From an uncultured virus (IMG/VR IMGVR_UViG_3300031974_001836) (Duplodnaviria; Heunggongvirae; Uroviricota; Caudoviricetes), in IMG/VR virus record IMGVR_UViG_3300031974_001836: a stretch of DNA of 20,000 bases; one strand, given 5' to 3'. Position numbers and translations under genes: made by a program. Below, piece after piece: positions 2 through 19,709 of the stretch. Numbering within the stretch: position 1 is the stretch's first letter; every line of letters begins with the position of its first letter. Below the pieces are notes generated by a model. It ran no database searches and was not told where the DNA came from. It was given only the letters and a program-made list of their open reading frames with translations.

Positions 2-3000
2 CTGAATTACACCACCAACGAAAACGATTGCGTTTGCGTCTTGAGTGTAGAAGTCTAGTGCGAATGTAGTCTGTGCACCGTCACCTGCCATAGTTTGACG
101 TTTCGCATTGTTGAACGCCAACTGAGTAGGATCTTGTAGAGACATTCCGTCAAGAGTGTTGTTAACACGTAGTACGTAACCGTTCTTACCGTCGTATGCT
201 GAATCAGATACATCTGCAAGTTCTAATAGAGACTTAGCAGTGTCGATTGAGAATACACCAGTAGAAGAGTTGTATGATACCTTGCCTTCACCAGCAGTGT
301 CTACTAGAGATACTGAAGCACGAGCAAGTGCATCACTGAAGAACTTCTTACTACCCTCTACTAGATCGTCTGTAGAGAACTGAGAGATGTGCTGTGCCGC
401 AAGACCTGCGTCCAACTGACCCTTGTTCACTGCATCTGTTGCTACAGTACCGTTTGCTACACCCTCAACCTTGTTGCCAGACATGTCCAAGTTGCCAGAC
501 ATTGAATCACCTGACTTCTGTACACGACCGTCGATTTGAGTTTGTAGTGCAGTATCTGCCGCAGCGAATTCACCACGGATTGCTGTACCCTGTGCCGCAC
601 GATCAGTAATCTCTTGTGCTAGACCAGAAGCATTTGTAGCAATATCTGTCTGGTTAGTTTGGATTAGAGATAGTAGATCACCGTCTCCAGACTGTAGTGC
701 CGCAACGATCTCTGTTAGAGAATCTAGTGCCGCAGAGTCTGTGTTAGATACGACGAAGTCGATCTGAGACTGTAGTGATGCTTCAACACCTTGTGCACGT
801 GAAGATTCACTTGCAATTGCCTGAGCATTAGTAGTGATTAGATCACCTAGGTCTGACTCAGCACCAGTTGCACGAGCAACCTCACCGTTGATTAGAGTGC
901 GGTTTGCACCTTCAGCAGCGGTAGCACGAGCAATTTCTGCGTCTAGTTGTGACTGTAGGTTGGTAACACCAGAGTTGCGTGTGTTGTCAACCGACTTGAT
1001 TGCCGCATCTAGTTTCGCAGCCGCATCTGCTAGAGATGTAGATGCATCTAGGTAGTTTGTACCTGCTGGTGTGACGTATGTACCATCTGTTGCAAGACCT
1101 GAAGCAAGTTGAGTTGCAGACATTTCTGTCTCAACAACAGTTAGACGTGTGTCTAGTCCGTTGTCCGCAACCTGACGATCATTGATCTCTTGATCGATAC
1201 GACCATCTAGTGCGTCATCTGCGTTCTCACGTAGAGTTGCTTCACCAGCAACGATACCGTCTGCGTATACCTTAGCAGCTGCTTCCGCATTGTTTGCCTT
1301 GGTAGTCGCATCTGAAGCAGCGTTTGAAGCAACAACTGCGTCACGAGCAATGTAGTCTGCCTGATCTGTGATGCGATCTGCACCTAGATCAGCACGGATT
1401 GCTAGGTCACCGTCGATACGTGCTTGGATTTCTGTTGATAGACGATCACTATCTGCATCAGCACGTGCTTCTGCGGCAGTCATACGACCTTCAACTGCGT
1501 CTAGTTCACCGTGAACTTCGTTAACCGCACCAGTAATTGTTTGTGCAGTAGTGTCGAAGTTGCCTGTGCCTAGTTTAGTTTCAAGTGCAAGGATATCACC
1601 TTCGTTGATAGTCAAACGACCATCTTGTAGAGTGTTCTTGCTCTCGACCGCATCCATGCGAGATTCTAGTGAATCCCCACGACCTTCGATCGCATTCATT
1701 TCTGTCTCTAGGACACCGATGCGTGAAGTGTTGTCGTCTGCTTGTGTGTGTAGTTCGTTTACAGCACCAGTAACGTTGTTTGCAACAGTTGCTAGAGTGA
1801 CCACACCCATCTGCGACTGTAATGTATCAACGTGACCTTCTTCTGTAGTCATGCGAGATTCTAGTGAAGTTGCACGACCTTCGACTGCGTCCATCTCACT
1901 CTGTAGAGTGTCGATTTCACCTTCGGCAGTTGTTACACGAGCAGTTAGAGCAGTTAGATCACCTGCTTCTGCACCTAGTTCTTCGTGTAGTTCGTTAACT
2001 GCGTCTGATAGGTTAGTAGCAGTTGTTAGAAGAGTTGCTGAACCCTGCTTAGTTTCTAGTGAAGTTGCACGACCTTCTAGTACAGTTGCACGACCTTCGA
2101 CTGCAGATGCACGTCCCTGTAGGACAGATACGTCTGAATCGTGACCGTCTAAACGACCTTCTGCTACATCCATTTCTGATTGTAGTAGATCAACGTTAGC
2201 TGCTTCAACGTCTAGTTCACCGTGGATCTCGTTGATCGCGTCAGAAACGTTTGTTGCAGTTGTGTGTAGTAGTGCAGAACCCTGCTTAGTTTCTAGGGCA
2301 GTTGCACGACCTTCAACACCACTCAAACGAGTGTTCTGTACGATCTGATCAGAATCTAGACCGTTTAGACGGTTTGTGTGAGCAACGTCTTTCGCTTCTA
2401 GATCAGTAGCACGTAGTTCGACTGCGTCCATTTCTGATTCTAGAGTAGTTAGACGACCACCGTTTGCGTCGATAACACCTTGTAGGTCTGAGTCTGCGTT
2501 TTGGAATGCACTAACGATTTCTGTTAGTGAATCTAGTGCAGCTCCATCTTCGTTAGAAACGATGAAGTCAACACGACCTTCTAGAGTTGTTAGGTCTGTA
2601 CGGATACCAGTTTCGACACCAGTAGCACGAACAATCTCTGCATCCAACTGATTTTGTAGGTCTGTAACGTCACCTGATTGTAGATTTTGTAGAGCAAGGA
2701 TATCTGAATCGTTTGCAGTAACTTGTGCCTGAACACTATCTACGTCAGTACGTAGACCAGCTTCGATACCTTCAGCACGTGTCTGTTCTGCATCGATGTT
2801 GCCTTGTAGGACACCTTCTGCGGCAGTTGCACGGTTAACTTCAGCAGTGATTTGTGCTTGGTTGTCTGCGTGATCAGTTGCTTGTAGTACTTGTAGAGCA
2901 AGGATATCAGAATCGTTTGCTGTAATTTGTGCTTGGTTAGAGTCGACATCGGTACGTAGACCTGATTCGATTCCAGTAGCACGAGTGATCTCTGCGGCAA

Positions 3001-5437
3001 GACCGTCTGCGTTAACCTGCTCTGCGGCAGATGCACGGACGATTTCTGCATCGATCTGATCTTGTAGGTCTTGTACGTCTGATCCGACTAGACCTTGTAG
3101 AGCAAGGATGTCTGAATCGTTCGAAGTAACCTGAGACTGTAGAGAGTCTGCTGTTGACTGTAGACCTGCCTCAACACCTGAAGCACGTACAACTTCTGCT
3201 AGGATTGCCGCATTTAGATCGGAATCTGCTTCGTTGAAGTCTGCTTCTACTGTATCTAAACGGTTGCTTAGACCCTGTTCAGCTGCCTGTGCACGTGCAA
3301 CTTCTGTGTTGATCGCACCTAGGTTAGAAGAGATGTTTGAGATGTTTGTGTTGATGTCTGTGCGAAGTACTGATTCAGCAGCTTCTGCACGTTGACGTTC
3401 TGTAACAACTGCTTGTGCGTTAGTTTGCTCTGCAGTTGATGCACGAGTAACCTCTGCTGTGATCTGTGCTTGTAGATCGTCAACATCGATTGTAGTGTTA
3501 CTGCTAAGTGCGTTGACCTGTGCTTGTAGGTCTGAGTCACCAGATGCACGTGCAACTTCTTCTGCACGTAGATCGACTTCGTTTTGAGCAGCTAGTGCTT
3601 CAACGTCATCCATCTCACCTTCTAGTACTGTTGTACGTAGAGATAGTGCTTCCTCTGCAGCTTCTGCACGTGCCTTTTCGACATCGTGTAGAGTCTGTGC
3701 AAAGTTAGTTGCTTGTGTCTTAGCAGTTGCGATACGTGCTGTAATTGTGTTACCAGCAGTTCCGTCAACTGAAGCATCACCGATAAGAGCAGTGTCTTGT
3801 GCGTCTGCGTGTGCAATCGCAACTGCTTGGTGTGCGTCTGCTTCTTGGTCAGTGTATGCTTTTGCTTGTGCAAGTACGTCGTCTGTAGAGACGTTTAGAT
3901 CAAGTTCTAGTGCGTCGATCTGAGACTGTAGACCTGCGTCTGCAGTTGAACGAGTTGATGCCTCTGCGTCGATGTTGCCCTGTAGGACAGAATCAGCAGA
4001 TGCACGAGTTGATGCTTCGTTCGAGATTGCAGTAGTGTTAGAAGAAATCAATGCAGACATGTCTGAATCAGCAGACTGGAATGCATCAACGATTTCTGTT
4101 AGTGAGTCTAGTGCTGCAGGATCAGTGTTGTTAGTGATGAAGTCAACTTGTGATTGTAGACCTGCTTCAACACCTTCAGCACGTGCTTTTTCTGTAGCAA
4201 CTTCTGCTGAGTTAGCAACGTCACCAGCAAGACGATCAGCAATTTCTTGATCGATACGAGCACCTAGATCTGAGTCACCTGCGATACGAGCAGCGTTCTC
4301 GATAGCAACATTGCTGTTTGCTTCGACGATTGCTTCTGCTTTTGCAGTTGCGATACGATCTGTGATAGTGTTGCTTGTAGTACCATCAACAGTTGCATCA
4401 CCGATCATTAGAGCATCTTGTGCTTCAGCATGTGCCTTAGCATCTGCTTCTGCTTGAACGATGTCTGCACCTAGATCAGTACGAACCTGTGTATCAGCAA
4501 CAGCACGAGCAACGATCTCATCTGAGATGTTTGATGCGTTCGCAGCTTCTGCCGCAGTTGCACGAGAAACTTCGTCTGCAAGATCTTGTGCGATCGCAGA
4601 TTCTGCGTTAGATGCACGAGTAACTTCTGCGTCGATTTGAGACTGTAGAGAACCAGACTTAGTCTCTTCTGTAGTCAAACGAGCAGATAGAGCATTGTCT
4701 GCCGCAATACGGGCAGTCTCTTCTGCACCGATTAGACCAGCAAGTGAAGACTCTGCAGATTGTGCACGTGAGATCTCTGTAGTAACACGATCATCAATTG
4801 CTTGTTCTGATTGAGTCGCACGAGTGACTTCGTTTGTGATAGCAGTGCTGTTTGCGATGATTGATGCAGATAGGACATCGTCCGCTGATTCAAATGCCGC
4901 AATGATTTCTGCAAACGAGTCTAGTGCTTCTGGACTTGTGTTGTTTAGGATGTTATCGATACGAGTCGATAGTGTAGAATCAGCTGCTTGGTAAGCAGTT
5001 TCGATTGCGTTCTCACGAGCAATTGCACGGGTTTCTTCTGCCGTGATGTTTGCTTGTAGAGTAACGTCTGCCGATGAACGAGTAGATGCTTCTGCGTCGA
5101 TGTTTGATTGTAGTAGAGTCTCTGCCGCAACTGCACGGTTTGTTTCTACTAGAACATCTGCGTCAATCTGCGCAGCGACATCTGTATTAGCACGATCAGC
5201 GGTATAGTATAGGTTAGAACCTTCCGCTAGGTCAGACGTGCTGAACGAAGCGAAGAACTGGTCTGCACCAATCTTCTTTAGTGAGTCAGAACCCACATCG
5301 TAAAGAAGAGTAAAGCAGTCCGCAGGATTTACCATACCTTGAAGGGTTGATTGTCCCTGTACCGCACTTTCGTCAAGTTTGGTATTGATTACCGCCTTGT
5401 CCGCTAGTGCAGGGGATTTAATCTGCCTAAATGCCAT
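2..5437 (-). CDS. Very long segmented coiled-coil virion fibre (fibritin/tail-fibre-like), >=1812 aa, 3' end outside the window
   Basis: Not in the ORF track because there is no stop in the window. ATG at 5437 follows an AGGAGA RBS and begins MAFRQIKSPALADKAVINTKLD. The same frame is still open at the left edge (...GDGAQTTFALDFYTQDANAIVFVGGVIQ). I translated both ends and several internal segments, not every codon. Contains Ala/Glu/Arg heptads (E..RA..AE..L...I), four LDS[LF].EI..A[FL] motifs, four A[VI]NE[LIV]H motifs and a YadA-like neck (KVEGVANGTVATDAVNKGQLD, about 415-490). Confidence 0.88.
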   Translation of the reverse strand, partial: MAFRQIKSPALADKAVINTKLDESAVQGQSTLQGMVNPADCFTLLYDVGSDSLKKIGADQFFASFSTSDLAEGSNLYYTADRANTDVAAQIDADVLVETNRAVAAETLLQSNIDAEASTRSSADVTLQANITAEETRAIARENAIETAYQAADSTLSTRIDNILNNTSPEALDSFAEIIAAFESADDVLSASIIANSTAITNEVTRATQSEQAIDDRVTTEISRAQSAESSLAGLIGAEETARIAADNALSARLTTEETKSGSLQSQIDAEVTRASNAESAIAQDLADEVSRATAAEAANASNISDEIVARAVADTQVRTDLGADIVQAEADAKAHAEAQDALMIGDATVDGTTSNTITDRIATAKAEAIVEANSNVAIENAARIAGDSDLGARIDQEIADRLAGDVANSAEVATEKARAEGVEAGLQSQVDFITNNTDPAALDSLTEIVDAFQSADSDMSALISSNTTAISNEASTRASADSVLQGNIDAEASTRSTADAGLQSQIDALELDLNVSTDDVLAQAKAYTDQEADAHQAVAIAHADAQDTALIGDASVDGTAGNTITARIATAKTQATNFAQTLHDVEKARAEAAEEALSLRTTVLEGEMDDVEALAAQNEVDLRAEEVARASGDSDLQAQVNALSSNTTIDVDDLQAQITAEVTRASTAEQTNAQAVVTERQRAEAAESVLRTDINTNISNISSNLGAINTEVARAQAAEQGLSNRLDTVEADFNEADSDLNAAILAEVVRASGVEAGLQSTADSLQSQVTSNDSDILALQGLVGSDVQDLQDQIDAEIVRASAAEQVNADGLAAEITRATGIESGLRTDVDSNQAQITANDSDILALQVLQATDHADNQAQITAEVNRATAAEGVLQGNIDAEQTRAEGIEAGLRTDVDSVQAQVTANDSDILALQNLQSGDVTDLQNQLDAEIVRATGVETGIRTDLTTLEGRVDFIVSNEDGAALDSLTEIVSAFQNADSDLQGVIDANGGRLTTLESEMDAVELRATDLEAKDVAHTNRLNGLDSDQIVQNTRLSGVEGRATALETKQGSALLHTTATNVSDAINEIHGELDVEAANVDLLQSEMDVAEGRLDGHDSDVSVLQGRASAVEGRATVLEGRATSLETKQGSATLLTTATNLSDAVNELHEELGAEAGDLTALTARVTTAEGEIDTLQSEMDAVEGRATSLESRMTTEEGHVDTLQSQMGVVTLATVANNVTGAVNELHTQADDNTSRIGVLETEMNAIEGRGDSLESRMDAVESKNTLQDGRLTINEGDILALETKLGTGNFDTTAQTITGAVNEVHGELDAVEGRMTAAEARADADSDRLSTEIQARIDGDLAIRADLGADRITDQADYIARDAVVASNAASDATTKANNAEAAAKVYADGIVAGEATLRENADDALDGRIDQEINDRQVADNGLDTRLTVVETEMSATQLASGLATDGTYVTPAGTNYLDASTSLADAAAKLDAAIKSVDNTRNSGVTNLQSQLDAEIARATAAEGANRTLINGEVARATGAESDLGDLITTNAQAIASESSRAQGVEASLQSQIDFVVSNTDSAALDSLTEIVAALQSGDGDLLSLIQTNQTDIATNASGLAQEITDRAAQGTAIRGEFAAADTALQTQIDGRVQKSGDSMSGNLDMSGNKVEGVANGTVATDAVNKGQLDAGLAAQHISQFSTDDLVEGSKKFFSDALARASVSLVDTAGEGKVSYNSSTGVFSIDTAKSLLELADVSDSAYDGKNGYVLRVNNTLDGMSLQDPTQLAFNNAKRQTMAGDGAQTTFALDFYTQDANAIVFVGGVIQ

Positions 5438-6806: not shown

Positions 6807-7163
6807 TTACCTCGTGACCGAAGGGTTGACTTTTATCTTACCTTCTAGTATTCTTTCTATAATGGTATGACCTTCTTCATCAACGAAACTGATCTCAACA
6901 TCATAGACGTATCTACCACGAGTGGATAGAGCATCGGTCTGTAGGTTAGTTAGGGATAATGTGACGACACCTTCCAGTGCTGGAGTAGGTATTACAGCAG
7001 TAAAGTCGATCGACTCTGTACTCCTGTATGTCTTTTTCATTTTGGCAGCTGCTGTATAACCAGTTAGATCTTTTTTAGATCCATCGGGATTCACTAACTC
7101 TAATTGTAGAGCTAGGTCCGCACCCTGATCAATTGTGAAATCTTCGTAAGTTGCCATAGTCAT
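6807..7163 (-). CDS. Conserved T4-like virion structural protein (BppU-N-like beta-sandwich)
   Basis: Pattern IDQGAD...DLTGYTA.A.M.K...G.VTLSLT..QT..L..GRYVYDVEI...RILEG...V.P.VTR. The start is probably the ATG at 7163 or 7157, not the TTG at 7166. Confidence 0.75.
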   Translation of the reverse strand: MTMATYEDFTIDQGADLALQLELVNPDGSKKDLTGYTAAAKMKKTYRSTESIDFTAVIPTPALEGVVTLSLTNLQTDALSTRGRYVYDVEISFVDEEGHTIIERILEGKIKVNPSVTR

Positions 7164-7194
7164 CAAGACCCTAAGTGTATAAACGTTCTGTGAC

Positions 7195-8670: not shown

Positions 8671-9116
8671 TACTCGGCCTCTAGTTGTTCTTGCAGAATC
8701 ATGATCGAGTACATATCGACTTCGATCTTAGATTTGGCACGACGTAGTTTTGCCTTTAGTTTGCGGTTCTTAGAGTTCTTGATTTCATCCACCTCAAATG
8801 CTTCCAACTTGTAGTTAAATAACTTCTCAAGTTTTCGTGCTTTGTTGTGTTCTTCCTCACGAATTTTATCTTCTTCTGCTTCTGCCTTTTTGCGTTCGAC
8901 TCGATCAGTAGTTTCTTGATCGATTCGTTCTTCACCTAAAGCCTCGACAACCTCATTAAACAGTTCGTTTTCATTGCCATCTTTATCATGCCGACGCAGA
9001 AACATTTGTTGATGCGTTACACGACCAACATCATCTTCAAGTTCTAGGATACAGTTCAGTTCTTTCTTTTCGTCTGTTTCCCAGAACGCATTATCCATCC
9101 ATTGTTTACGACTCAT
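8670..9116 (-). CDS. Hypothetical protein, charged and helical C-terminal half (148 aa)
   Basis: ATG at 9116 has a GGAG RBS 6 nt upstream, so it is preferred over the TTG at 9128. Its stop overlaps the glycosyltransferase start. Confidence 0.75.
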   Translation of the reverse strand: MSRKQWMDNAFWETDEKKELNCILELEDDVGRVTHQQMFLRRHDKDGNENELFNEVVEALGEERIDQETTDRVERKKAEAEEDKIREEEHNKARKLEKLFNYKLEAFEVDEIKNSKNRKLKAKLRRAKSKIEVDMYSIMILQEQLEAE

Positions 9117-9159
9117 TAATATCTCCAAAGAGTTCAGTTCAATTCAACTGTATATATGC

Positions 9160-9190
9160 AAAAAATAGTGGGGCAGAAATCCACCCCACT
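9160..9190 (-). terminator. Rho-independent terminator after the 1571-aa fibre gene
   Basis: Minus strand reads AGTGGGGTGG-ATTT-CTGCCCCACT-ATTTTTT: a 10-bp stem with 2 G-U pairs followed by a U tract. Confidence 0.85.
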
Positions 9191-9196
9191 TTGCAT

Positions 9197-9225
9197 ATTA
9201 TACCATAAGGATTGCTATTATGCAA
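9197..9225 (-). promoter_or_regulatory. Sigma70-like promoter TTGCAT-17 nt-TATAAT with extended -10 (TGG-TATAAT)
   Basis: -35 at 9225-9220, overlapping the last codons of the fibre gene. -10 at 9202-9197. Spacer is 17 nt. Confidence 0.6.
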
Positions 9226-12200
9226 CCCTCACATATAGTGTATAGGTATCAGTAACGTGTGTTAGTGTATCACTGATCGTTGCACCTACGTAGTTACCTA
9301 GGAACGATCTTGAGTAGTTACCCACGAAGTCACGAGCATAGTTGCCCTCAAATCCACGTGTGTAGTTACCAGTGAAATCACCTACGTATGTAGAAACACG
9401 GTCACGTGAGTATGCACCACTGTATGCAGACGTACGGATACGAGCATAAGCAGATACACGGACACGTGCATAGTTACCTACGAAGTCACGAGAGTAAGTA
9501 CCAGTGTACTCACCGACGAATCCACGTGCGTAGTTACCCACGAAGTCACCGACAAAGTCACGAGCATATGCACCCGTGTACTCACCAGTAAATGTACGTG
9601 CGTAGTTACCTACGAAGTCACCAGCAAATTCACGTGTGTACTGACCAGAGAACGTACGTGCATAGTTACCAGTAAAGGTGCGGTTATATGCACCAGTGTA
9701 TTCACCAACGAATCCACGTGAGTAGTTGCCTACGTAATCACCAGCAAACTGACGTGAGTAAGTGCCTGAGTATGCCCCAGTGTATTCACCAACGAATGTG
9801 CGGTTGTAAGCACCAGTGTACTGACCAGAGAATCCACGTGAGTAGTTACCGACGTAGTTTCCACCGAAGTCACGAGTGTAGTTACCTACGTAATCACCAG
9901 CAAAGTTACCGACGAAATCACCGATGAAGTTACCTGCGAAGTTACGTGAGTAGTTACCTGTGAAGTCACGAGCATAGTTACCAGCAAAGTCACCTGCAAA
10001 GTTAGTTACACGATCACGTGTGTATGCAGAAGAACGGTTGCGGACATATGCCGATACACGAGTACGTGCGTAAGCAGAGTAACGTGTGCGTGTTGATGTG
10101 CGAGTGTACTCACCAGTAAAGTTACCAGCAAAGTCACCAGCAAAACCACGTGCATAGTTACCTACGAAGTCACCAGCAAAACCACGAGAGTAGTTACCGA
10201 TGAAGTTACCAGCAAAGTTAGTTACTCGATCTCTAGTGAAGTCACCAACGTAGTTGGTTACACGAGTACGAGCATATGCTGAACTACGGCTTCTGGTTGA
10301 AGTACGTGTGCTGTTACGTGTGTATTCACCAATGAAGTTACCTGCGAAGTTTGTTACACGGTTACGTGTGAAGTCACCAACATAGTTAGTGATACGAGTA
10401 CGTGCATAAGCAGAGTAACGTACACGAGTTGAAGTACGGACACTGTTACGAGTGTAGTTGCCTACAAAGTTACCAGCAAAGTTTGTAACACGGTTACGAG
10501 TAAAGTCACCAACGTAGTTAGTGATGCGAGTACGTGCGTATGCTGAATAACGAGTACGGGTTGAAGTGCGAGTAGATGTACGTGCGTAGTTTCCTACGTA
10601 ATCACCTGTGTAGTAACCAGTACGTACGTAGTTTCCTACGAAGTCACCTGCATAGTAACCAGTACGTGTGTAGTAACCAGTGTTGGTTGACGTACGGGTT
10701 GACGTACGAGCATAGTTGCCTTCATAAGAAGCACCACGAGTACGTGCATAGTTACCTTCATAAGAAGCACCACGAGTACGTGAGTAGTCACCGACATATG
10801 ATGCGGCACGAGTACGTGTGTATGCTACTGTACCTACGTAATCACCAGCAAAGTTACCAACGTAGTTTCCGGTGTAGGATGCACCACGACTACGAGTGTA
10901 TGCTACGTTACGGGTATAGTTGGTTGCACGAGTACGTTGATAGTTTACGGTACCTACGTAATCACCAGCAAAGTTACCTACGTAATCACCAGTATAAGTT
11001 GCGGCACGGTTACGAGTATAGTTTTGTGACCACTCACCAATGAAGTCACCTGTGAAGTCACCTGCGTAGTTTGCAGTACCGACGAAGTTACCAGTATAAC
11101 TTGAAGTTCCTGTCCATGATAGACCATATCTCCATTCCGCACCATATGATACACGGAATGTACCTCTTGAATACCATACACCGTTCTTCTGTACAGAAGT
11201 TGTACCTGAAGTACCAGAAGCAAATCCAACATATACTCCGTCAGCATAGAGCATGATACCTTGCATCTCGTAGTCATATACCCACTGGGTGACGTTTGCA
11301 ACGTATACGTCAGTGTTGGTCTGAGTGCCAGTAGAGGTACGTGTTGACGTAACTGAACGAGAATAGTTGACAATTGAGTTACGAGTCGAGTTAGTAGCAC
11401 CACCACGTGAGTAGTCACCTGTATAGGATGCCGCACGACTACGAGTGTAGTTAGTTGCACGAGTACGAGTAAAGTTGGTCTGACGTGTGTAATCACCTAA
11501 GAAGTTACCAGTGTATCCTACTGTACGAGAGTAGTTACCAGTATAGGTGGCTGCACGTGTACGAGTATAATCTGTTGCACGAGTACGAGTAAAGTTGGTC
11601 TGACGTGTGTAGTTACCGACATACGATGCCGCACGAGTACGTGCATAGTTACCGACATACGATGCCGCACGGTTACGTGCATAGTTACCAACATACGATG
11701 CGGCACGAGTACGTGCATAGTTACCTACGAAGTCACCTGCGTAGTATAAAGTACGAGTATATGCTAGTACACGAGTCGATGTACGTGTTGACGTACGAGT
11801 GTAATCTAGTACACGAGTCGACGTACGTACAGAGGTACGTGCGTAGTTGCCTACAAAGTCACCTGCGTAGTTGCCAGCAAACCCACGTGCGTAGTTACCA
11901 ACAAAATCTCCGGTAAACGTAGTAGCATAGTTGCCTACGAAATCACCAGCAAAGTTAGTTACACGATCACGGGTATAGTTACCAGTAAAGTCACCTGTAT
12001 AGTTTCCTGTGAATCCACGTGCGTAGTTACCTACGAAGTCACCAGTAAAGGTTGTCGCATAGTTACCTACGAAGTCTCCCGCAAAGTTAGTGACACGATC
12101 ACGAGCATAGTTACCAATGAAGTCACCAGCAAAGTTGCCAGCAAACGCACGTGCATAGTTACCAACAAAATCTCCAACGAAATCACGGGCATAGTTGCCA

Positions 12201-13933
12201 ATGAAGTTGCCAGCATAGTTGGTTACACGATCACGAGTATATGCTGAGTAACGAGTACGTGTTGACGTACGAGCATAAGCACTGTAACGAGTACGAGTAG
12301 ATGTACGTGTTGATACACGAGCATAGTTACCGACATAGTTGCCAGCAAACCCACGTGAGTAGTTGCCTACAAAGTTACGTGCATAGTTACCTTGGAAACT
12401 GCGTGAGTAGTTACCAACGAAGTTACCAGCAAAGTTTGTAACACGGTTACGAGTATATGATGATACACGAACACGTGAGTAGATGCCAGCAAAGTTAGTG
12501 ACACGATCACGAGTGTAGTTAGTTACACGAGTGCGGACGTAGTTATCAGAATAAGCAGAAACACGAGTACGAGTGTAAGTGCCTGCGTATGCTGAAACAC
12601 GGTTACGTGAATAAGTACCTGCGTATGCAGAGACACGGTTACGTGAGTAAGTTCCTGCATAGGTACCAGTATAAGACGACACACGAGTACGAGTGTAGTT
12701 AGCAGAGTATGCAGAACTACGTGTACGTGAGTATGTGCCTGAGTAAGATGATACACGACCACGAGTGTACGAAGATGCACGGCTGCGTGAGAATGTACCA
12801 GTAAAGTTTGTTACACGGTTACGAGTGTATGTTGATACACGTGCTCGTGTATAAGTTCCAGCAAAGTATCCAGTGAATGCTGTTAGACGTGTACGTGAGT
12901 AAGTCGACGTACGAGTCCTTGAGTAAACACCTGAGTATGCAGAACCACGAGTACGAGAATAGTTACCCTCGAAACCACGTGTGTAGTTTCCTGTGAAGTC
13001 ACGTGAGTATGTGCCCGTGTAATCACCTACGAAAGTACGTGAGAAAGTATTGACACTATTACGTGTATATGAGGAAACACGATTTCTTGAGTAAGCAGAA
13101 ACACGAGTTGTTACATACGATGATGGGCGTGTGCGAGTATAACTCTGATCCACGATCGTACGACGTGTGTTTGTTGCTGAACCCTTTGCCATCCAAGTAC
13201 CTGCAGATGTAGGTACACCTTGTGTATCAGAACGTAATTGATACGAACCGATAGCACCAGCAGTGGCACGTAGAGTTTTTGCACGTTGACCAAGTGTGTA
13301 CTTGATCTGTGCGTCTGTCATTTCTTTAAATCCGTCGACAGAAGAACCATCATAGACAGTTGCAACTGGACGAACAACATCATAAGTAGTTGCACTTAAT
13401 GATGTCTTTTTCCAAATATGGTAGTTTACAGTAGTGCCGTCTCCATGAGTATCTGTAAATACATTCTCAATATGGATACTCCAATCTAAGCCTGGAGATG
13501 TTTGAGATAGACGGAAGGATCCTTGATATTCTAATCCCGCAACGTCTTTCATGACACGTTCTGTAAGTAGGTCTAAGTCCCCGTCGTTCATTTCATAGAA
13601 ACCAGGGTTAGGCCCCACGTCATAGTATCCTACTGGACGGGCAAAATCTGCACCGGACTCATCTGCTGATCCACCCACTTGCTTAAGAGCAGTAGTTGTT
13701 GTGGTACCAGTGATCTGAGATGCAGGGTGTGTCCCTGCTGGTTCGTTGTAGTACGTATCTACGAAGGAACCAATATTCACACTTCCGGTTAAACTGATAT
13801 TACCGATATCACTAGCAGTGGCCTCTGCTAATGCTTCTCCAACCTTAATGGCAAGATATGCTTCTTCTGCCGGTTGGAATTCCTGTAGGTCACCATCATT
13901 AATGATTTTTAGTGGTATACTAGATGCTGACAC
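9218..13933 (-). CDS. Giant Arg/Tyr/Gly/Thr tetrapeptide-repeat fibre protein with mirror-symmetric arms (1571 aa)
   Basis: GTG start with a GAGAG RBS and a late promoter upstream. Architecture is 264-aa base + 606-aa arm + 75-aa tip + 606-aa arm + 20-aa tail, which sums to 1571. Confidence 0.9.
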   Translation of the reverse strand: MSASSIPLKIINDGDLQEFQPAEEAYLAIKVGEALAEATASDIGNISLTGSVNIGSFVDTYYNEPAGTHPASQITGTTTTTALKQVGGSADESGADFARPVGYYDVGPNPGFYEMNDGDLDLLTERVMKDVAGLEYQGSFRLSQTSPGLDWSIHIENVFTDTHGDGTTVNYHIWKKTSLSATTYDVVRPVATVYDGSSVDGFKEMTDAQIKYTLGQRAKTLRATAGAIGSYQLRSDTQGVPTSAGTWMAKGSATNTRRTIVDQSYTRTRPSSYVTTRVSAYSRNRVSSYTRNSVNTFSRTFVGDYTGTYSRDFTGNYTRGFEGNYSRTRGSAYSGVYSRTRTSTYSRTRLTAFTGYFAGTYTRARVSTYTRNRVTNFTGTFSRSRASSYTRGRVSSYSGTYSRTRSSAYSANYTRTRVSSYTGTYAGTYSRNRVSAYAGTYSRNRVSAYAGTYTRTRVSAYSDNYVRTRVTNYTRDRVTNFAGIYSRVRVSSYTRNRVTNFAGNFVGNYSRSFQGNYARNFVGNYSRGFAGNYVGNYARVSTRTSTRTRYSAYARTSTRTRYSAYTRDRVTNYAGNFIGNYARDFVGDFVGNYARAFAGNFAGDFIGNYARDRVTNFAGDFVGNYATTFTGDFVGNYARGFTGNYTGDFTGNYTRDRVTNFAGDFVGNYATTFTGDFVGNYARGFAGNYAGDFVGNYARTSVRTSTRVLDYTRTSTRTSTRVLAYTRTLYYAGDFVGNYARTRAASYVGNYARNRAASYVGNYARTRAASYVGNYTRQTNFTRTRATDYTRTRAATYTGNYSRTVGYTGNFLGDYTRQTNFTRTRATNYTRSRAASYTGDYSRGGATNSTRNSIVNYSRSVTSTRTSTGTQTNTDVYVANVTQWVYDYEMQGIMLYADGVYVGFASGTSGTTSVQKNGVWYSRGTFRVSYGAEWRYGLSWTGTSSYTGNFVGTANYAGDFTGDFIGEWSQNYTRNRAATYTGDYVGNFAGDYVGTVNYQRTRATNYTRNVAYTRSRGASYTGNYVGNFAGDYVGTVAYTRTRAASYVGDYSRTRGASYEGNYARTRGASYEGNYARTSTRTSTNTGYYTRTGYYAGDFVGNYVRTGYYTGDYVGNYARTSTRTSTRTRYSAYARTRITNYVGDFTRNRVTNFAGNFVGNYTRNSVRTSTRVRYSAYARTRITNYVGDFTRNRVTNFAGNFIGEYTRNSTRTSTRSRSSAYARTRVTNYVGDFTRDRVTNFAGNFIGNYSRGFAGDFVGNYARGFAGDFAGNFTGEYTRTSTRTRYSAYARTRVSAYVRNRSSAYTRDRVTNFAGDFAGNYARDFTGNYSRNFAGNFIGDFVGNFAGDYVGNYTRDFGGNYVGNYSRGFSGQYTGAYNRTFVGEYTGAYSGTYSRQFAGDYVGNYSRGFVGEYTGAYNRTFTGNYARTFSGQYTREFAGDFVGNYARTFTGEYTGAYARDFVGDFVGNYARGFVGEYTGTYSRDFVGNYARVRVSAYARIRTSAYSGAYSRDRVSTYVGDFTGNYTRGFEGNYARDFVGNYSRSFLGNYVGATISDTLTHVTDTYTLYVRVA
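9281..11098 (-). repeat. Returning tetrapeptide-repeat arm (aa 946-1551)
   Basis: 148 tetrads plus 7 dipeptide skips, in mirror order to the outgoing arm. Confidence 0.9.
11324..13141 (-). repeat. Outgoing tetrapeptide-repeat arm (aa 265-870)
   Basis: 148 tetrads of types YxRx, F/YxGx, RxS/T/Ax and SxRx, plus 7 dipeptide skips. Confidence 0.9.
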
Positions 13934-13983
13934 GATATCGTCTCTCTTTTAAAAGTTAAAGTTTAGTGGTTAATGACGTAGAT

Positions 13984-13991
13984 TATTTATA
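13984..13991 (-). promoter_or_regulatory. T4-type late promoter TATAAATA
   Basis: Exact consensus, intergenic, about 50 nt upstream of the GTG at 13933. Confidence 0.85.
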
Positions 13992-14010
13992 CGAAATCAG
14001 ATCGTCACTT

Positions 14011-14490
14011 TTAACTTTTTTGAGGCCAGACCACTTCCTGTACAGAAGTAACACCATCTAGGTGGTCGGTGATATCTCTTAACTGCTGCCGGTAGTTTCT
14101 CCATGACTGCAACTCTTGCTCAGATAGAGGAGCATCAAGTGCTTGAGTCCAGTCACAAGCAGTGAGTAATTGGTCTCGAATCATACGAACATCTCTAACC
14201 AAATCTTCGTGGTTCCATGTCCAATCTAAAGACTCGAAGTTCCACGTTGCATGCTTGTTTGGTGGTAACCCTGTGAATTTAAAGGTTTTTGTTGATGCAT
14301 CAAACCAGTGATAATCCATGAAGTAGGACAAGTCACTGCATCCTGCAGGAAGACTATCCTCATGAACATAGATAATACGTTGAGAACCATCGGGAGTAAA
14401 CCCCTCTGAATCAATCTTCACTTGCGGAAGAGAGATCCTTTCTAGTCTTCCTGTCTGCGTATTAGCATATACAACATAGCATAATTTCAT
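14011..14490 (-). CDS. Phage tail (fibre) assembly chaperone
   Basis: C-terminal R..RD.LL..CDWTQ..D.PL......W..YRQ.LRDIT......V.WP signature. Lies directly after a fibre gene. Confidence 0.85.
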   Translation of the reverse strand: MKLCYVVYANTQTGRLERISLPQVKIDSEGFTPDGSQRIIYVHEDSLPAGCSDLSYFMDYHWFDASTKTFKFTGLPPNKHATWNFESLDWTWNHEDLVRDVRMIRDQLLTACDWTQALDAPLSEQELQSWRNYRQQLRDITDHLDGVTSVQEVVWPQKS

Positions 14491-14491
14491 T

Positions 14492-17400
14492 TTAACTTCT
14501 CGTTACTTGATAATAGGTCATAATAGGTCCACCAGAGTAGTCTGTCTCGATGTAATTTCCACGAGTATATGTGAATCCACCAGTTGTTATTGTAGTATCA
14601 TTTTCACTCTGACCTGATAGTGGTTCAGAAAAATACACTTCAGTCCCATTCCATCGAATCTGTATCGTCACAAGATCTTCACCTTCTGGACTAGGAACAA
14701 GTGATACTCTCCACCAAGTGCCAGAGTTAGACGTATCTGTCGTCTGAGGTGGTGGTTCTGAGTTGACATCTGACGAAGTAGGTGCTACCGAAACCGGAGT
14801 AGTTACCAAATAACTACCTGCTGTGATCCATTGACTACCATTGAACACTTTTATATCATAGGTATATGATGTCCCATTAGGTGGGATCTCATTTACCGTG
14901 AAGTTATTTAGACCACTTGTTACTGTAACATCTGTTAAAATGAGAGCATTATCACGATAAACTCTCAACGACACAGGAGTAGACCCCTCTGTCAAATGTG
15001 TTACTGACAGTTGATGTGTTGTGTCATTTTCCGGATGCACTATTCGATTAGAGGTTGTGGCAAAAATACCCGAATCATTATCATATAACGTGAACTCTTT
15101 CTCCGCAAGAACCTCAACGTTGCTACTACCCATTGGTTCGTTGATACTGGAAGTGTCATTCCCAGTACGTAACTGTGCCCTGAAGGTTTCTCCTTGCCAT
15201 CCCATTTCTCCAACACCGGCTGATACTGTACTGGTTCGTGTATAGTTGCCTATGAACTCACCCGTATAATACGTCTTGGCACCATCGGAGTATGAAGAGG
15301 TTCTAGTTCTTATAAAGTCTCTAGTTGAGGTTCTAGTAGAATTCCTTGTCGATGGTACATAATTCGCATAGTTCCCCAAGTAACTTGGTGTCCTCACATA
15401 ACTGCGTGAATCTGTAAAGTCACGTGTATAGTTACCTGTAAAGTTACCAGTGTACTCTCCAATAAAGGACAACACCCTACTGAAAGCAGTGACTCTTATA
15501 TCGGTTCGAGAACTAACACGTGTGTAGTAAGAGATCGGATATCTACTATATGAGTCTACAATGTTGCGACTATAATTACCTTCGTAGTTACCTTCATACG
15601 ATGGAGATCTGCTATACGTTCCTGTATAGTCACCTATGAAATCTCCAACAAATGATCTCTGATAGTTGCCCTCAAAATTACCACCGAAGTCTCGATTATA
15701 GTTTCCGGTGAATGTACCAGCATAGGAGAACACGGACTCTCGTACACGAGTTGACGTACGACTAGACGTTCGTTGATAGTTAACCGCATGATTCTCTACA
15801 CTACCTTCTATGATGACTTGTCGAGTAGACGCACCTACATAATCTCCCGTATAGATGCGAGTATAAATTCCAGTTCTCTCATAGTTACCCGTATACTGAC
15901 CAGCAAAGTTTCTGTTATAAGTTCCTGTGTATTCCGATACAAATCCTCTTTCATAATTGCCTAAGAAACCTGGTGTGTATGTGCTAACTCGGTTTTTAAG
16001 ATATGTGCTGTATCTGGTAACAACCCTTCCACTTGTCTTGGTTGATATTCGAGAGTTCTCTCCCACGAAATTACGTGTATAATATCCAAATATCTCGACC
16101 ATACCACCCGCATCGGGATCGAATATAAATCGACTAGAAACTTTTGTGACGTTGCCGACAAAGGATCGAGTGTAATTTCCAAAATAACTTCTACTATAGT
16201 CCCCATTATAAGCACGACCATAATTACCAATATAGGTAAGAGTACCTGTATATGAAGAGACTCTATTTCTAGTAGAACTACCTCCCACCGATCTAATCCG
16301 TTGATAGTTACCTATAAAGTCTCGGGTATAATTGCCTACAAAGTTTTGACTAGCAGTTGGTGTGCTTGTACTGGTGTTTTCTGCTATTTTATAATCTTCA
16401 ACAAATGTAGTGGCAGTTTGAAGTGTCCCTCTATGATAATATTTACCTCCTACAGGACCGACAATGGATGATACTCTTGCATCAGCCATACTATCGTATG
16501 CACTACTGGTGTAAACGAGTGTTCCATTGTAGTATAATTGAATAAAGTATTCGTACGTAATATCTCCTCTACCGTCACCAAATCCACCTTCTACGAATCG
16601 AGCAAGTCTCCATACGTATTGAGGATTACCATTAGTGATAGAATATAAGAACGGATCAGACCCACTACCACTGACTCTGGTTCGTTCGTAGGTAGAGGTT
16701 CTAGTTCTCTCGTAGTTGCCTTCGTACGAAGCATTTCCCGTAAAATTACCCACAAACGTACGAGAGTAAGTTGAGGTTCTTGAGTAGTTCCCCTCAAAGT
16801 TGCGAGAGTAATTACCGACAAACGTACGAGAGTATCCCCCTTCATATGACTCGACACGTGTACGTGTATAGTCTACCAGATTTGCGTACGAAGACGTTCT
16901 GGTTCGAGCAAACTCACCAGTATAAGTAATCGTTCTGGTGTAGTTACCTACGAAACCACGTTGATAGTTACCAACAAACGTTCGGGTGCTCTCTGTCCCA
17001 CCCCTAGTTCGAGTGTATGCGGAGATTCGAGTTCGAGCATAAGTTCCGTCGTATGTGGACAGTCTTGCTCTCGTTGAGATTCTTTGATACGGCACTTGTC
17101 GGGTAGATGTTATCGAGTATCGATAACGGCCATAATTTACCTGTGGAACGTAATCCCCTATGAAGTTGCCCAGAAAATTTCCAGTGTAGGTTAGAGTTCG
17201 AGTAAAGTCGAATGGTCTTTGTCTTTGATAAGACGATACTCGTGTTCGACTTGATACTCGATTATACGCAGAAAGTCTCGTGCGTGTAGACGTACGAGTA
17301 AATGTCTTCGACGTTGACAACTCTGGTATTCGAGTTCTAGTGTAATTACCAGCGTAGTTAGACGGACGGTTTCGTTGATACGTCTCGGTATATGTACCTG

Positions 17401-18895
17401 GTCTATAGGTTATCTCAAGTCTACCTTCTGGGTCATTCGGTATAGGATTCCAGTTGTAGTAGATGGTGCCCGTATAAAATCTTGAGTAGTTACCCTCGAA
17501 TGATAACCCGTCTGAGTAATTACGTTCGAATGTACTCGTACGTGTACTATTCCTTGTCGACAGTCGAGTGTATAGACCTTCATAGTCAACTGTTCTTACA
17601 TAGTCACCCGTGTACCCTATTGTCCTTGTGCTTGTTCTAGTATAAGTGCTAAGACGGGTATAGTCTCCGGTAAAGTCTCCGGTATAGTACCCTATTGTAT
17701 TACCAATAAAGTCACGGTTGAATCCTGTTGCAATATCAACGATTGACTGTCTGGTAAACGACCCTGTTCTTTCAATGGTTACATTATATGATGTAGTGTC
17801 ATTATAAGAGACAAACGTTGCTGTATGCGCAGACCCCGTAAATGTAGAAAAGTTTGCAGTAAAGTCTTTCTGTGCTACACCGTCTGACCCTGAGAGTCTG
17901 AATAATTTAACGTGATAATTGTTAGGTTCGTTAGTCGTTGCTATTAGACTAATCGATTGTCCTTCAATTATATTATCGACACTAGAGAATTGCAATGCTC
18001 CCTGTAGACTAGATTCCTCTTCGTTTTGTTGACTAGTTCCTGAAGAAGACCCTTCTAGTTTGGCCGCAAACAATGCGTTCAGGTTCCTGAAGTTTTGATA
18101 TATTTCTTGTAGACCTGACTCATCATAGTTAATTAAGATAGAGTCGTAATACCGAACCTGTGTAGTGCTGAACCCCAGTCCGTACAGATTAGTTGTAATT
18201 TGGTTGTCTTGAAAAGCACCACTAATAGCACCGGATAAAGACCATTCAATATTAATATAGCATCCAGCACTATGATTTAAAAACGGGTTGCCTAAGACGG
18301 TCCAGTTCTGACTTGGTGGTAGATAGGTTTCAATATTAAAAATATTATTGGTGATAAGTGCTCTGGAATCAAAAGCAATTCTACCCTGTGATGTCTTTAT
18401 CTGTAGACCATATTCATCGTCGTTTAACGCAGATGAATTTTCTATAATCTCTGCTGTCTCACGGACAATAAAGTAGTCCATGTCCACATCCCAATCAGCA
18501 GTCACATAGGTCTGGTTTAAATATCCACCATTGGTAAGTCCACGACCTTTGAATCTGTAGGTATTGCTTAGTGCATCACTTGCCGTTCGTGCTAGGAAAA
18601 ACACTTCAGGGTTTGAGATAGTAACGTCTTGCGTAGTCCCATTAAAATTGGTAATTGCGTCGGGTACAACTATTGGACCAAATCCGGTTCCAGTTAAATC
18701 TGGATTGTATCCGGTTGCGGTTGGACGTTTTACAAAGACAAAGTCTTCTTTGGTGAGTTCGGAATCTAAGGTAAACGAATGCCCACGACCTGCTGCTACA
18801 ACTCTGTAGTTAAGAAGATCGAGAGTAGTATCGGCAATAATGAAATTGTTACCGTTGCCGTCATTGCCTTGTACCTTTAGACCGTAGGTCATCAT
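14492..18895 (-). CDS. Second tetrapeptide-repeat fibre protein (1467 aa)
   Basis: N-terminal YGL.[VI]...G...[FA]D[ST] motif occurs twice. A Calx-beta-like domain is split by an approximately 860-aa repeat insertion that has a central domain. An Ig/FN3-like domain, a P/S/T linker and a C-terminal domain follow. ATGA overlap with the upstream stop. Confidence 0.88.
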   Translation of the reverse strand: MMTYGLKVQGNDGNGNNFIIADTTLDLLNYRVVAAGRGHSFTLDSELTKEDFVFVKRPTATGYNPDLTGTGFGPIVVPDAITNFNGTTQDVTISNPEVFFLARTASDALSNTYRFKGRGLTNGGYLNQTYVTADWDVDMDYFIVRETAEIIENSSALNDDEYGLQIKTSQGRIAFDSRALITNNIFNIETYLPPSQNWTVLGNPFLNHSAGCYINIEWSLSGAISGAFQDNQITTNLYGLGFSTTQVRYYDSILINYDESGLQEIYQNFRNLNALFAAKLEGSSSGTSQQNEEESSLQGALQFSSVDNIIEGQSISLIATTNEPNNYHVKLFRLSGSDGVAQKDFTANFSTFTGSAHTATFVSYNDTTSYNVTIERTGSFTRQSIVDIATGFNRDFIGNTIGYYTGDFTGDYTRLSTYTRTSTRTIGYTGDYVRTVDYEGLYTRLSTRNSTRTSTFERNYSDGLSFEGNYSRFYTGTIYYNWNPIPNDPEGRLEITYRPGTYTETYQRNRPSNYAGNYTRTRIPELSTSKTFTRTSTRTRLSAYNRVSSRTRVSSYQRQRPFDFTRTLTYTGNFLGNFIGDYVPQVNYGRYRYSITSTRQVPYQRISTRARLSTYDGTYARTRISAYTRTRGGTESTRTFVGNYQRGFVGNYTRTITYTGEFARTRTSSYANLVDYTRTRVESYEGGYSRTFVGNYSRNFEGNYSRTSTYSRTFVGNFTGNASYEGNYERTRTSTYERTRVSGSGSDPFLYSITNGNPQYVWRLARFVEGGFGDGRGDITYEYFIQLYYNGTLVYTSSAYDSMADARVSSIVGPVGGKYYHRGTLQTATTFVEDYKIAENTSTSTPTASQNFVGNYTRDFIGNYQRIRSVGGSSTRNRVSSYTGTLTYIGNYGRAYNGDYSRSYFGNYTRSFVGNVTKVSSRFIFDPDAGGMVEIFGYYTRNFVGENSRISTKTSGRVVTRYSTYLKNRVSTYTPGFLGNYERGFVSEYTGTYNRNFAGQYTGNYERTGIYTRIYTGDYVGASTRQVIIEGSVENHAVNYQRTSSRTSTRVRESVFSYAGTFTGNYNRDFGGNFEGNYQRSFVGDFIGDYTGTYSRSPSYEGNYEGNYSRNIVDSYSRYPISYYTRVSSRTDIRVTAFSRVLSFIGEYTGNFTGNYTRDFTDSRSYVRTPSYLGNYANYVPSTRNSTRTSTRDFIRTRTSSYSDGAKTYYTGEFIGNYTRTSTVSAGVGEMGWQGETFRAQLRTGNDTSSINEPMGSSNVEVLAEKEFTLYDNDSGIFATTSNRIVHPENDTTHQLSVTHLTEGSTPVSLRVYRDNALILTDVTVTSGLNNFTVNEIPPNGTSYTYDIKVFNGSQWITAGSYLVTTPVSVAPTSSDVNSEPPPQTTDTSNSGTWWRVSLVPSPEGEDLVTIQIRWNGTEVYFSEPLSGQSENDTTITTGGFTYTRGNYIETDYSGGPIMTYYQVTRS

Positions 18896-19296
18896 CCAAC
18901 CCTTATCGCAATAACGTCTATGGTTTTATATTCCCATAGTTCTTGTGGAAGGGGAGTGTGTAAATATCTAACATCTTGTAAAGACACCTGAATTCTATCA
19001 TTAGTCCAACCACTAGAAATACCTGTAGGAGAATCTTTACTGATTCTGGTAATATAAATTCGTGTGTAGTAATTTAGATTGGCAGGTTTTCTCACAAGAC
19101 TGACAATAATATTATTGGTGTCAGATGCGTCCGGACATTCAAGTAGGGTGGAGTCACTCGGCCAGGCAAGAGAAAATGTTTCTCTTAGTTGGATATTACT
19201 GGTTCTTATATTATCAGAGAATACGACTTCAGGTTGAACAAATGTACCATCCTCTTGCTCAATTTTAGGGCCGTATAGTTGGATACCATAACTCAT
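18892..19296 (-). CDS. Small tail-associated protein (MSYGIQ...VFSD N-terminus)
   Basis: 134 aa. Its N-terminus resembles the YGL motifs of the downstream 1467-aa protein, and the two genes are translationally coupled. Confidence 0.7.
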   Translation of the reverse strand: MSYGIQLYGPKIEQEDGTFVQPEVVFSDNIRTSNIQLRETFSLAWPSDSTLLECPDASDTNNIIVSLVRKPANLNYYTRIYITRISKDSPTGISSGWTNDRIQVSLQDVRYLHTPLPQELWEYKTIDVIAIRVG

Positions 19297-19304
19297 GGTG
19301 CCCC

Positions 19305-19709
19305 CTATGGTTTAGGTGGCCAAACAACTGACTCCAAATCAGAATAGTCTTGTGTGATATCACGAAGTGTTTGTCTGTACACGCTCCATTCTTCTCGTTG
19401 ACCGTCACTCAGACCATTGTCATCTAACCTAGTCCAGTCACATTCCTGAAGTTTAGTATTACGTGCCTGACGCAATTCTTCTATTTCGATCTGTGCGATA
19501 ACATCATCTGGATAAGGTGCTACAATTTGTGCTACAATATCATCAGATTCAATGTATTTGTTCAGAACAATTGCTCGTGTAGCATCATACTCTTCTTGCC
19601 ACGGAATAAAAAGTTTCCATGCTTCTGGTGATGGTACCACATTATTGGGAAAGGATTGAGGAGAACCCACTGGAATACCGTTATGTACTTTTATAAACTG
19701 TATGCTCAT
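19305..19709 (-). CDS. Phage tail (fibre) assembly chaperone, paralogue of 14011..14490
   Basis: Contains LRQARNTKLQECDWTRLDD..LS..QREEWSVYRQTLRDITQ.......VVWPPKP. AGGA RBS. Confidence 0.85.
   Translation of the reverse strand: MSIQFIKVHNGIPVGSPQSFPNNVVPSPEAWKLFIPWQEEYDATRAIVLNKYIESDDIVAQIVAPYPDDVIAQIEIEELRQARNTKLQECDWTRLDDNGLSDGQREEWSVYRQTLRDITQDYSDLESVVWPPKP

Follow-up and report, generated by a model that had tools for sequence, protein, structure and literature searches.

The window analysed here is a 20,000-nucleotide stretch of DNA from an uncultured virus (IMG/VR record IMGVR_UViG_3300031974_001836; Caudoviricetes), and the element in question is a single open reading frame (ORF) on the minus strand, at 14492..18895, which encodes a protein of 1467 amino acids (aa) termed P0001. 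We propose that P0001 is probably a tail-fibre protein of an uncultured phage, in which a β-sandwich domain (aa 300-366 plus aa 1230-1281) is interrupted by an 863-residue shaft that would run out along one arm of repeats and return along a second, with a knob at its tip. This explanation is carried by the findings that the sandwich is contiguous in related phages, that the two flanks form one domain in the P0001 model, and that the two arms change length together among relatives. We infer, with good reason, that the arms are paired into a shaft and that the protein functions as a long receptor-binding fibre.

The interrupted sandwich and its uninterrupted homologues

The original prediction, made from the sequence alone, placed an insertion of about 860 residues between an ND pair at aa 366 and a downstream ETF motif, within the segment 15074-17996, which corresponds to aa 301-1274 of the ORF and is contained entirely in it. 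All of the residue positions that it quoted are correct: LQFSSVDN begins at aa 301 and GEMGWQGETF occupies aa 1229-1238, while FVSYND and FTLYDND have their last residues at aa 366 and aa 1274, respectively. When the protein is aligned with its homologues, the insertion between D366 and E1230 comes to 863 residues and consists, in order, of an arm of 375 aa, a knob of 109 aa and an arm of 379 aa. The domain that it divides has approximately 110 residues. The N flank (aa 300-366; 17798..17998, minus strand) contains approximately four to five strands and ends at N365-D366, and the C flank (aa 1230-1274; 15074..15208, minus strand) runs from E-M-G-W-Q-G-E-T-F to F-T-L-Y-D-N-D and contributes two strands, with the modelled domain reaching approximately aa 1281. 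As modelled, the domain is a seven-stranded sandwich, broken at its acidic end in the loop that follows strand five. Ten columns are invariant over 37 aligned members (E311, G336, E1230, G1235, E1236, L1242, G1245, F1268, D1272, and D1274), and N365-D366 is mostly conserved in these sequences.

Homologues that lack the insertion, which the original prediction had proposed to look for, were found in five diverged clusters. A phmmer search of 1.84 billion representative proteins with aa 1-372 as the query (cut-off E ≤ 0.001) returned 47 matches. Six of them are full-length proteins of 1254-1437 aa with the repeats, and five, of 519-648 aa (P0008, P0011, P0012, P0013, and P0016), have the two flanks adjoining, as in ...TITSVNDSASEIGYQGETFTISLR..., with the shared uninterrupted motif ND-xxx-E-x-G-[WY]-Q-G-E-x-F. 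In a joint alignment, the columns of D366 and E1230 stand 4 apart in all short forms and 740-904 apart in the long forms. Using hidden Markov models (HMMs), one per flank, we found 38 family members with both flanks; three residues separate the flanks in five of them and 560-1032 residues in the other 33, with no intermediates. Judged from their sequences, the short forms are genuine and not artefacts, because their mutual identity is low (40-49%) and ten viral contigs contain a contiguous match to P0011, covering residues 1-511 to 1-517. In one related phage contig (L003), a 638-aa short form occupies the gene slot equivalent to that of P0001. It is preceded by a homologue of the 134-aa gene found upstream of P0001 (E 5e-9), and followed by homologues of the downstream chaperone gene (31% identity, E 4e-33) and of the repeat gene that neighbours P0001, the latter with its N-domain 71% identical.

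Structure prediction, which the original prediction had also called for, brings the flanks together. The AlphaFold2 model of the short form P0011 (12-sequence alignment), with a mean predicted local distance difference test score (pLDDT) of 68, places the sandwich at residues 286-395; strands 340-354 and 367-375 are joined by the loop 355-366, which holds the insertion site. The model of P0001 aa 290-1290 (37-sequence alignment) has a mean pLDDT of 44; in blocks of ten residues, the N flank (model residues 1-78) scores 63-95 and the C flank (943-992) 70-94, and the knob (456-561) is mostly at pLDDT ≥ 90. We used a fold search of this model as a probe for the proximity of the flanks. All of the 50 + 50 matches listed are single sandwich domains of approximately 80-110 residues that span model residues from about 5 to 986, with 79-113 residues aligned at a root-mean-square deviation (rmsd) of 2.5-4.6 Å; the best among those listed is 7lr3_D (Z 8.1, rmsd 3.3 Å, 101 residues aligned). 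Since the aligned length exceeds that of the N flank (approximately 72 residues), both flanks make up one sandwich in the model, and the insertion therefore starts and ends at the same point. From the three residues that bridge the site in the short forms, the ends of the insertion would be roughly 15 Å apart or less on geometric grounds, if the fold is kept. Folding of the flanks as two separate chains lends weak support, with a score of 0.34 against 0.01 for the best of three controls, contacts agreeing by at least 55% between runs, and a partner pLDDT of at least 50. In the benchmark of this assay, 51 of 78 solved complexes passed the mark, against 2 of 108 mismatched pairs, and scores of 0.60 or below comprised only 5 of the 78 solved complexes and all 4 of the mismatches that passed (of 180).

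The view that one domain is split, with the ends of its insertion close in space, is thus upheld by the contiguous domain and three-residue link of the five homologue clusters, by the confidently modelled flanks and their joint sandwich, and by single-sandwich structural matches that span both flanks. These matches are immunoglobulin (Ig)-like, and neither flank folds as a complete domain by itself.

The arms, the knob and the competing explanations

Both arms, as assigned from composition and spacing, consist of repeats in which Thr, Arg, Tyr, Ser, Gly, and Asn are abundant and every fourth (or eighth) position is aromatic. Arm 1 (aa 367-741; 16673..17797, minus strand) has a block pLDDT of 25-44, and arm 2 (aa 851-1229; 15209..16345, minus strand) is mostly at 24-45, rising to 57 in the strand pair 627-652 of the model. 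The commonest aromatic spacing is 4, counted 25 times in arm 1 and 38 times in arm 2. The non-repeat knob (aa 742-850, 109 aa; 16346..16672, minus strand; knob HMM E 3.7e-36) lies between the arms, at 0.49 of the insertion length. A C-terminal domain (aa 1401-1466; 14498..14695, minus strand) is a second, diverged copy of this knob type (knob HMM E 2.1e-5; BLASTP of the knob against the C-terminus, E 0.003), and the fibre may accordingly have a binding head near its base in addition to that at its tip. Arm 2 also contains a short non-repeat bulge at aa 919-937 (region 16090-16140, minus strand; …RFIFDPDAGGMVEIFG…), which is conserved in P0014 (…RFIYDPDAQGLVEVFG…), and similar short stretches containing Asp and Gly are found in the arms of other relatives.

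Arm lengths were measured in 32 long forms from a common anchor, the column in which a conserved Asn of the knob is aligned. The insertion ranges from 559 aa (in P0157) to 1032 aa in these proteins, the anchor stays constant at 0.462-0.519 of the insertion, and the lengths of arm 1 and arm 2 are tightly correlated (Pearson r = 0.93). Because the long forms share ancestry, eight non-overlapping pairs taken from the family tree were compared as well. The two arms changed in the same direction in all seven pairs with sizeable changes, namely P0005/P0168 (+38/+38), P0014/P0157 (-109/-133), P0006/P0112 (+56/+108), P0133/P0136 (+51/+53), P0114/P0115 (-60/-36), P0001/P0107 (+38/+34), and P0009/P0117 (+25/+22); in the eighth, P0004/P0108, they hardly changed (+3/-4). 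The longest gap in the periodic aromatics was also tried as a locator of the knob and proved unreliable. The out-and-back hairpin put forward in the original prediction draws independent support from these co-varying arm lengths and agrees with the topology of the split domain, by which the chain, as modelled, must go out and come back; the matched lengths suggest that the arms lie side by side.

Several observations weigh against this explanation. The symmetry of the arms is partly inherited, and the 32 long forms descend from one event. A finder of the knob based on composition only (an R/T/Y-poor window) placed it at 0.456-0.522 in 32 of 33 long forms, but misplaced that of P0117 at 0.855, giving r = -0.19 with P0117 and 0.80 without it; the alignment-based anchor replaced this finder after the misplacement. 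The arms are without confident structure in the model of aa 290-1290 (block pLDDT approximately 24-57), and the presence of one domain in that model was judged from alignment ranges and aligned lengths, not from coordinates, contacts or predicted errors. A word-indexed search for shorter proteins with aa 1225-1467 yielded none among 1144 candidates at E ≤ 0.001, the short forms having been found solely by the exhaustive search with the N-terminal query. Finally, the neighbour of the fibre gene (9218..13933, minus strand), encoding a second repeat protein of 1571 aa, belongs to a family that shares the repeat type, and by a crude measure no more than 47 of 90 proteins of this family have their non-repeat domain at 0.4-0.6 of the insertion. 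One of its members, P0186 (864 aa), has two knob-type domains, at 392-496 and 624-713, with repeats between them, and judged from this arrangement it does not fit a simple single hairpin. Given the off-centre domains and the two-knob member, the repeats may also build linear fibres.

A first alternative, which we consider unlikely, is complementation from one chain or fibre to another, in which the C flank supplied by one chain would complete the N flank of a second by strand exchange as in pili, and the repeats would form a linear shaft or end-to-end polymers. The chain of origin of each flank is not distinguished by our results, fibres are usually trimers in which swapping is common, and the neighbouring family, with its often off-centre non-repeat domain and its two-knob member, would be in keeping with such an assembly. 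A linear or polymeric arrangement does not, however, require a knob at 0.46-0.52 in 32 of 32 long forms or the tight co-variation of the arms. Moreover, a single chain suffices to close the domain in the monomer AlphaFold2 model, and swapping inside one trimer at the same position would still require the chain to return.

We assign an equally small probability to a second alternative, namely that the insertion returns to its start without forming a rigid paired shaft, the knob being carried by a flexible or loosely packed low-complexity loop or by two separate shafts. The pLDDT of the arms and their low-complexity composition, rich in Thr, Arg, Tyr, Ser, and Gly, would agree with this. Against it, the strict period-4/8 aromatic pattern over approximately 750 residues points to a regular structure, the arm lengths are matched across relatives, and a low pLDDT is expected for a fibre that is modelled as a monomer from a shallow alignment. 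That the flanks are unrelated pieces resembling one domain by chance, or that each is a complete domain alone, is highly improbable: neither flank is recognised by any Pfam model, but they are joined in the five uninterrupted clusters, their ten invariant residues are spread across both in 37 sequences, the structural matches require both to reach their aligned lengths, and the C flank has two strands only.

Returning to the out-and-back shaft, the arms are not confidently modelled, and their pairing and the six-chain shaft are therefore what we infer: the two arms would run side by side with the knob at the far tip, as in phage T4 gp37, and a trimer of such hairpins would form a shaft of six chains. 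The N-terminal domain would anchor the fibre to the baseplate, and the knob would be a putative receptor-binding tip. The C-terminal Ig-like and second knob-type domains would remain near the base, where they could be reached by the downstream chaperone. In this way the module would convert a short fibre to a long one with both termini untouched. More speculatively, conserved acidic residues lying to either side of the insertion may form a Ca2+-binding clasp at the base of the hairpin.

Host reach is set by tail fibres. Among uncultured, related marine phages, some orthologues have a shaft of 560-1032 aa and others have none, which amounts to a natural series of on/off states and lengths in fibre reach. 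The family also provides a clean example of domain insertion, with the host domain, the insertion point and an uninterrupted, ancestor-like form all identifiable.

The host domain and known fibre tips

The interrupted domain had been described as Calx-beta-like. The common sandwich fold and a similar pattern of acidic residues speak for this description, whereas the Calx-beta family PF03160 (curated score 27 bits) is unmatched and the fold matches are no better than those to other sandwiches, and the Calx-beta name for the host domain is unproven. PF03160 did not match the whole P0001 protein at E ≤ 1, nor, at E ≤ 10, either flank, flank-plus-neighbour pieces or the five uninterrupted homologues, and a six-frame search of the nearest virus record (G001) was likewise negative. 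The flanks and the uninterrupted homologues matched no other informative Pfam family either. As the natural short forms stand in for the spliced sequence, the Pfam comparison suggested in the original prediction turned out negative.

In the structural comparison, the P0011 model matches the Calx-beta domain CBD1 (3gin_A, Z 8.3, rmsd 3.4 Å, 96 residues aligned, 16% identity; 3ead_A, Z 8.1), which is tied with a macroglobulin (MG) domain (2p9r_B, Z 8.2). For the P0001 model, HAP2 domain 3 leads (7lr3_D, Z 8.1), with MG domains at Z 6.8-7.4 and 6vbu_1 at Z 7.2, and Calx-beta domains are lower, at Z 5.3-5.5 (9iv8 CBD1, Z 5.5, rmsd 3.2 Å, 93 residues aligned; 3h6a_B, Z 5.5). By the tool's own scale, Z values of this size are common for any sandwich. 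Ig-like sandwiches, namely the MG domains and HAP2 domain 3, are structurally the best matches to the reconstituted P0001 domain, at a sequence identity of 7-13%; we know of no MG or HAP2 sandwich with a fibre-length insertion in the equivalent loop. The Calx-beta domains (NCX1 CBD1/CBD2 and integrin β4) resemble the P0001 domain in being seven-strand sandwiches of similar size. A Foldseek search with the whole 519-aa P0011 model gave generic tandem Ig-like matches, with NCX1 at ranks 13, 15, 18, 36, and 43; query ranges were not given and these ranks are not decisive. In the ESM Atlas, the best cluster for the P0011 domain was DUF859 at 0.89, below the level of more than a lead, and no Calx-beta cluster was among the matches listed.

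The acidic residues of P0001 are located in an early loop (E311), before the insertion (D366 of N365-D366), after it (E1230 and E1236) and at the domain end (D1272 and D1274). An excerpt of a study of NCX1 CBD1 gives its Ca2+ ligands as E385, D421, D446, D447, E451, and D498-D500 (PMC3386913). With respect to the residues in that excerpt, the acidic order in P0001 parallels E385, D446/D447, E451, and D498-D500, an equivalence by order and not by structural alignment, and the short forms have a D-to-E spacing of 4, as between D447 and E451 (PMC3386913). If this equivalence is true, the insertion is located inside a metal-binding loop.

The closest known design is the phage T4 gp37 fibre tip, with its collar, needle and head. 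In the excerpted description of this tip and of the like tips of Bas63 fibres, the chain exits a proximal domain, extends as a thin shaft as far as a small head at the distal end, and from there turns back to the proximal domain; as a trimer, the gp37-type tip has a six-strand shaft (PMC12609058). A 2010 review predates the gp37 tip structure and, in the passages at hand, gives only the size of the needle (PMC3004832). Judged from the split domain and the matched arm lengths, P0001 is like gp37 in doubling back at a distal head and returning to a proximal domain, with the physical pairing of the arms presumed, and it is also like gp37 in its T4-like phage setting and in the order of fibre gene and then chaperone gene.

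P0001 differs from gp37 in several features. The arms are approximately 375 aa each, and those of gp37 are presumably about 50-70 aa, so that the P0001 shaft would be several times longer. The iron-binding HxH motifs are absent, with 0 motifs and 2 His in the 863 aa of the insertion (aa 367-1229), and the arms are built of period-4/8 Tyr/Thr/Arg repeats. The proximal domain is an Ig-like sandwich, uninterrupted orthologues exist, and approximately 190 more residues follow the return, comprising an Ig-like domain and the second knob-type domain. The former, at approximately aa 1275-1370 (14786..15073, minus strand), has a weak, sub-threshold match to the Pfam TcfC E-set model (E 0.0011; score 19 bits, cut-off 29.4), and its counterpart in P0011 (residues 398-500) gives Ig-like matches at Z 7-8.6. 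The doubled-back design of the gp37 type would extend to much longer, iron-free shafts of simple Tyr/Thr/Arg repeats.

By sequence, P0001 resembled neither gp37 nor any other fibre tip of solved structure: it matched no PDB chain at E ≤ 10 and no family in Pfam or PHROGs. A profile of the short forms matched only two PCNA chains in PDB (E 0.62 and 2.2) and nothing relevant. The family is unannotated: P0001 had no family match in the libraries scanned (Pfam, PHROGs, and NCBIfam), PHROGs were likewise empty for the neighbouring repeat protein, and the family members bearing a name, in the two listings showing names, are all called "hypothetical protein". Keyword searches of open-access text found no account of these proteins as a family, nor of any hairpin insertion of fibre length in cyanophages.

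Gene neighbourhood and the second repeat family

The designation of P0001 as a tail-fibre protein follows from its gene cluster, in which fibre chaperone genes are present on both sides. The fibre gene is directly followed by a tail-fibre assembly chaperone gene of 159 aa (14011..14490, minus strand; PF16778, E 5.7e-16; phrog_4912, E 2e-16), a homologue of which follows the short form in L003. A paralogous PF16778 chaperone gene is found at 19305..19709 (minus strand), two genes upstream. Between this paralogue and the fibre gene, whose start it overlaps, lies the small gene of 134 aa (18892..19296, minus strand) that has a homologue before the short form in L003; it is without a family match in Pfam or PHROGs. 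Within P0001, the N-terminal domain (aa 1 to approximately 280; 18056..18895, minus strand) is common to long and short members (phmmer coverage of query residues 2 to approximately 370) and is mostly β in the P0011 model. An LtfC-like gene, identified in Pfam and PHROGs, is located at 6807..7166.

Phage C48C1 (OQ984149), labelled as a member of the Kyanoviridae, is the sole relative among 50,697 GenBank phage records. The Kyanoviridae are T4-like cyanophages. A tblastn search of these records with P0001 gave repeat-region matches in C48C1 only, and neither megablast with the fibre gene nor tblastn with the short form P0011 gave a match. A syntenic region of C48C1, which carries tail-fibre and chaperone annotations, contains a homologue of the neighbouring repeat gene. 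This homologue (locus 7903-17946) encodes a "hypothetical protein" of 3347 aa, 66% identical in the N-domain and approximately twice the length of the copy in the window.

Portability of the insertion, the other part of the original prediction, was borne out in one respect and not in another. The region aa 640-950 has 139 protein matches at E ≤ 0.001. Among the collected proteins, 36 have the N-terminal and C-flank motifs of the fibre family, and approximately 105 end in the ...ETYTLYVR.A of the neighbouring family. As the N-terminal domains of P0001 and the neighbouring gene product are unrelated (BLASTP E 1.5), the repeat-knob unit is common to two fibre families. Within the fibre family, however, short and long forms are separated by one branch (Shimodaira-Hasegawa approximate likelihood ratio test, 100), and in this tree, built without an outgroup, a single event, either a gain or a loss, is enough to explain them all. 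HMMs iterated from the knob did not spread past 17 proteins in one case, or past 2 and 6 proteins in others.

By eye, the neighbouring gene product has a non-repeat segment at aa 871-945, nearly mid-way, between arms of approximately 605 and 603 aa, with 21 residues after the second arm. Its approximately 105 relatives range from 389 to 1571 aa, and their repeat regions vary widely in length. No clean insertion-free member of this family was seen, and the proteins of approximately 270 aa stop inside or just before the repeats and look truncated. With no insertion-free member and a knob that is not consistently central, a hairpin could not be demonstrated for this family.

A more general proposal, which we advance only tentatively and which may well not hold, is that repeat-knob-repeat is a self-contained, length-tunable extension cassette. 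Inserted into a sandwich loop and closed by an acidic, possibly Ca2+-binding clasp, it would make the fibre tens of nm longer while leaving baseplate attachment and chaperone-dependent folding untouched, would change length through matched changes in its arms, and would be used by at least two fibre families with unrelated N-domains in marine phages. If the module is truly portable, it would offer a way to lengthen engineered fibres with their ends undisturbed.

Among the relatives of P0001, P0015 (737 aa) has the N-terminal domain of the fibre (residues 1-205 matched) leading directly into Tyr/Thr-rich repeats and a Thr/Pro-rich tail. Neither the C-flank motif nor an obvious knob was found in it, and P0015 represents a third architecture on the N-domain of the fibre.

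In other frames, three ORFs of 103-172 aa overlap the neighbouring repeat gene, at 10576-11043 (plus strand), 10978-11496 (minus strand) and 11605-11916 (plus strand). They look like by-products of the repeat DNA and not genes, with low-complexity translations rich in His/Tyr/Arg or Leu/Val/Thr. An open-ended ORF (2..5437, minus strand) encodes more than 1812 aa; its product is rich in Ala, Glu, Thr, and Asp and contains long internal repeats. This product is probably another fibrous virion protein, and it matches PHROGs of unknown function weakly (phrog_13589, E 1.1e-9).

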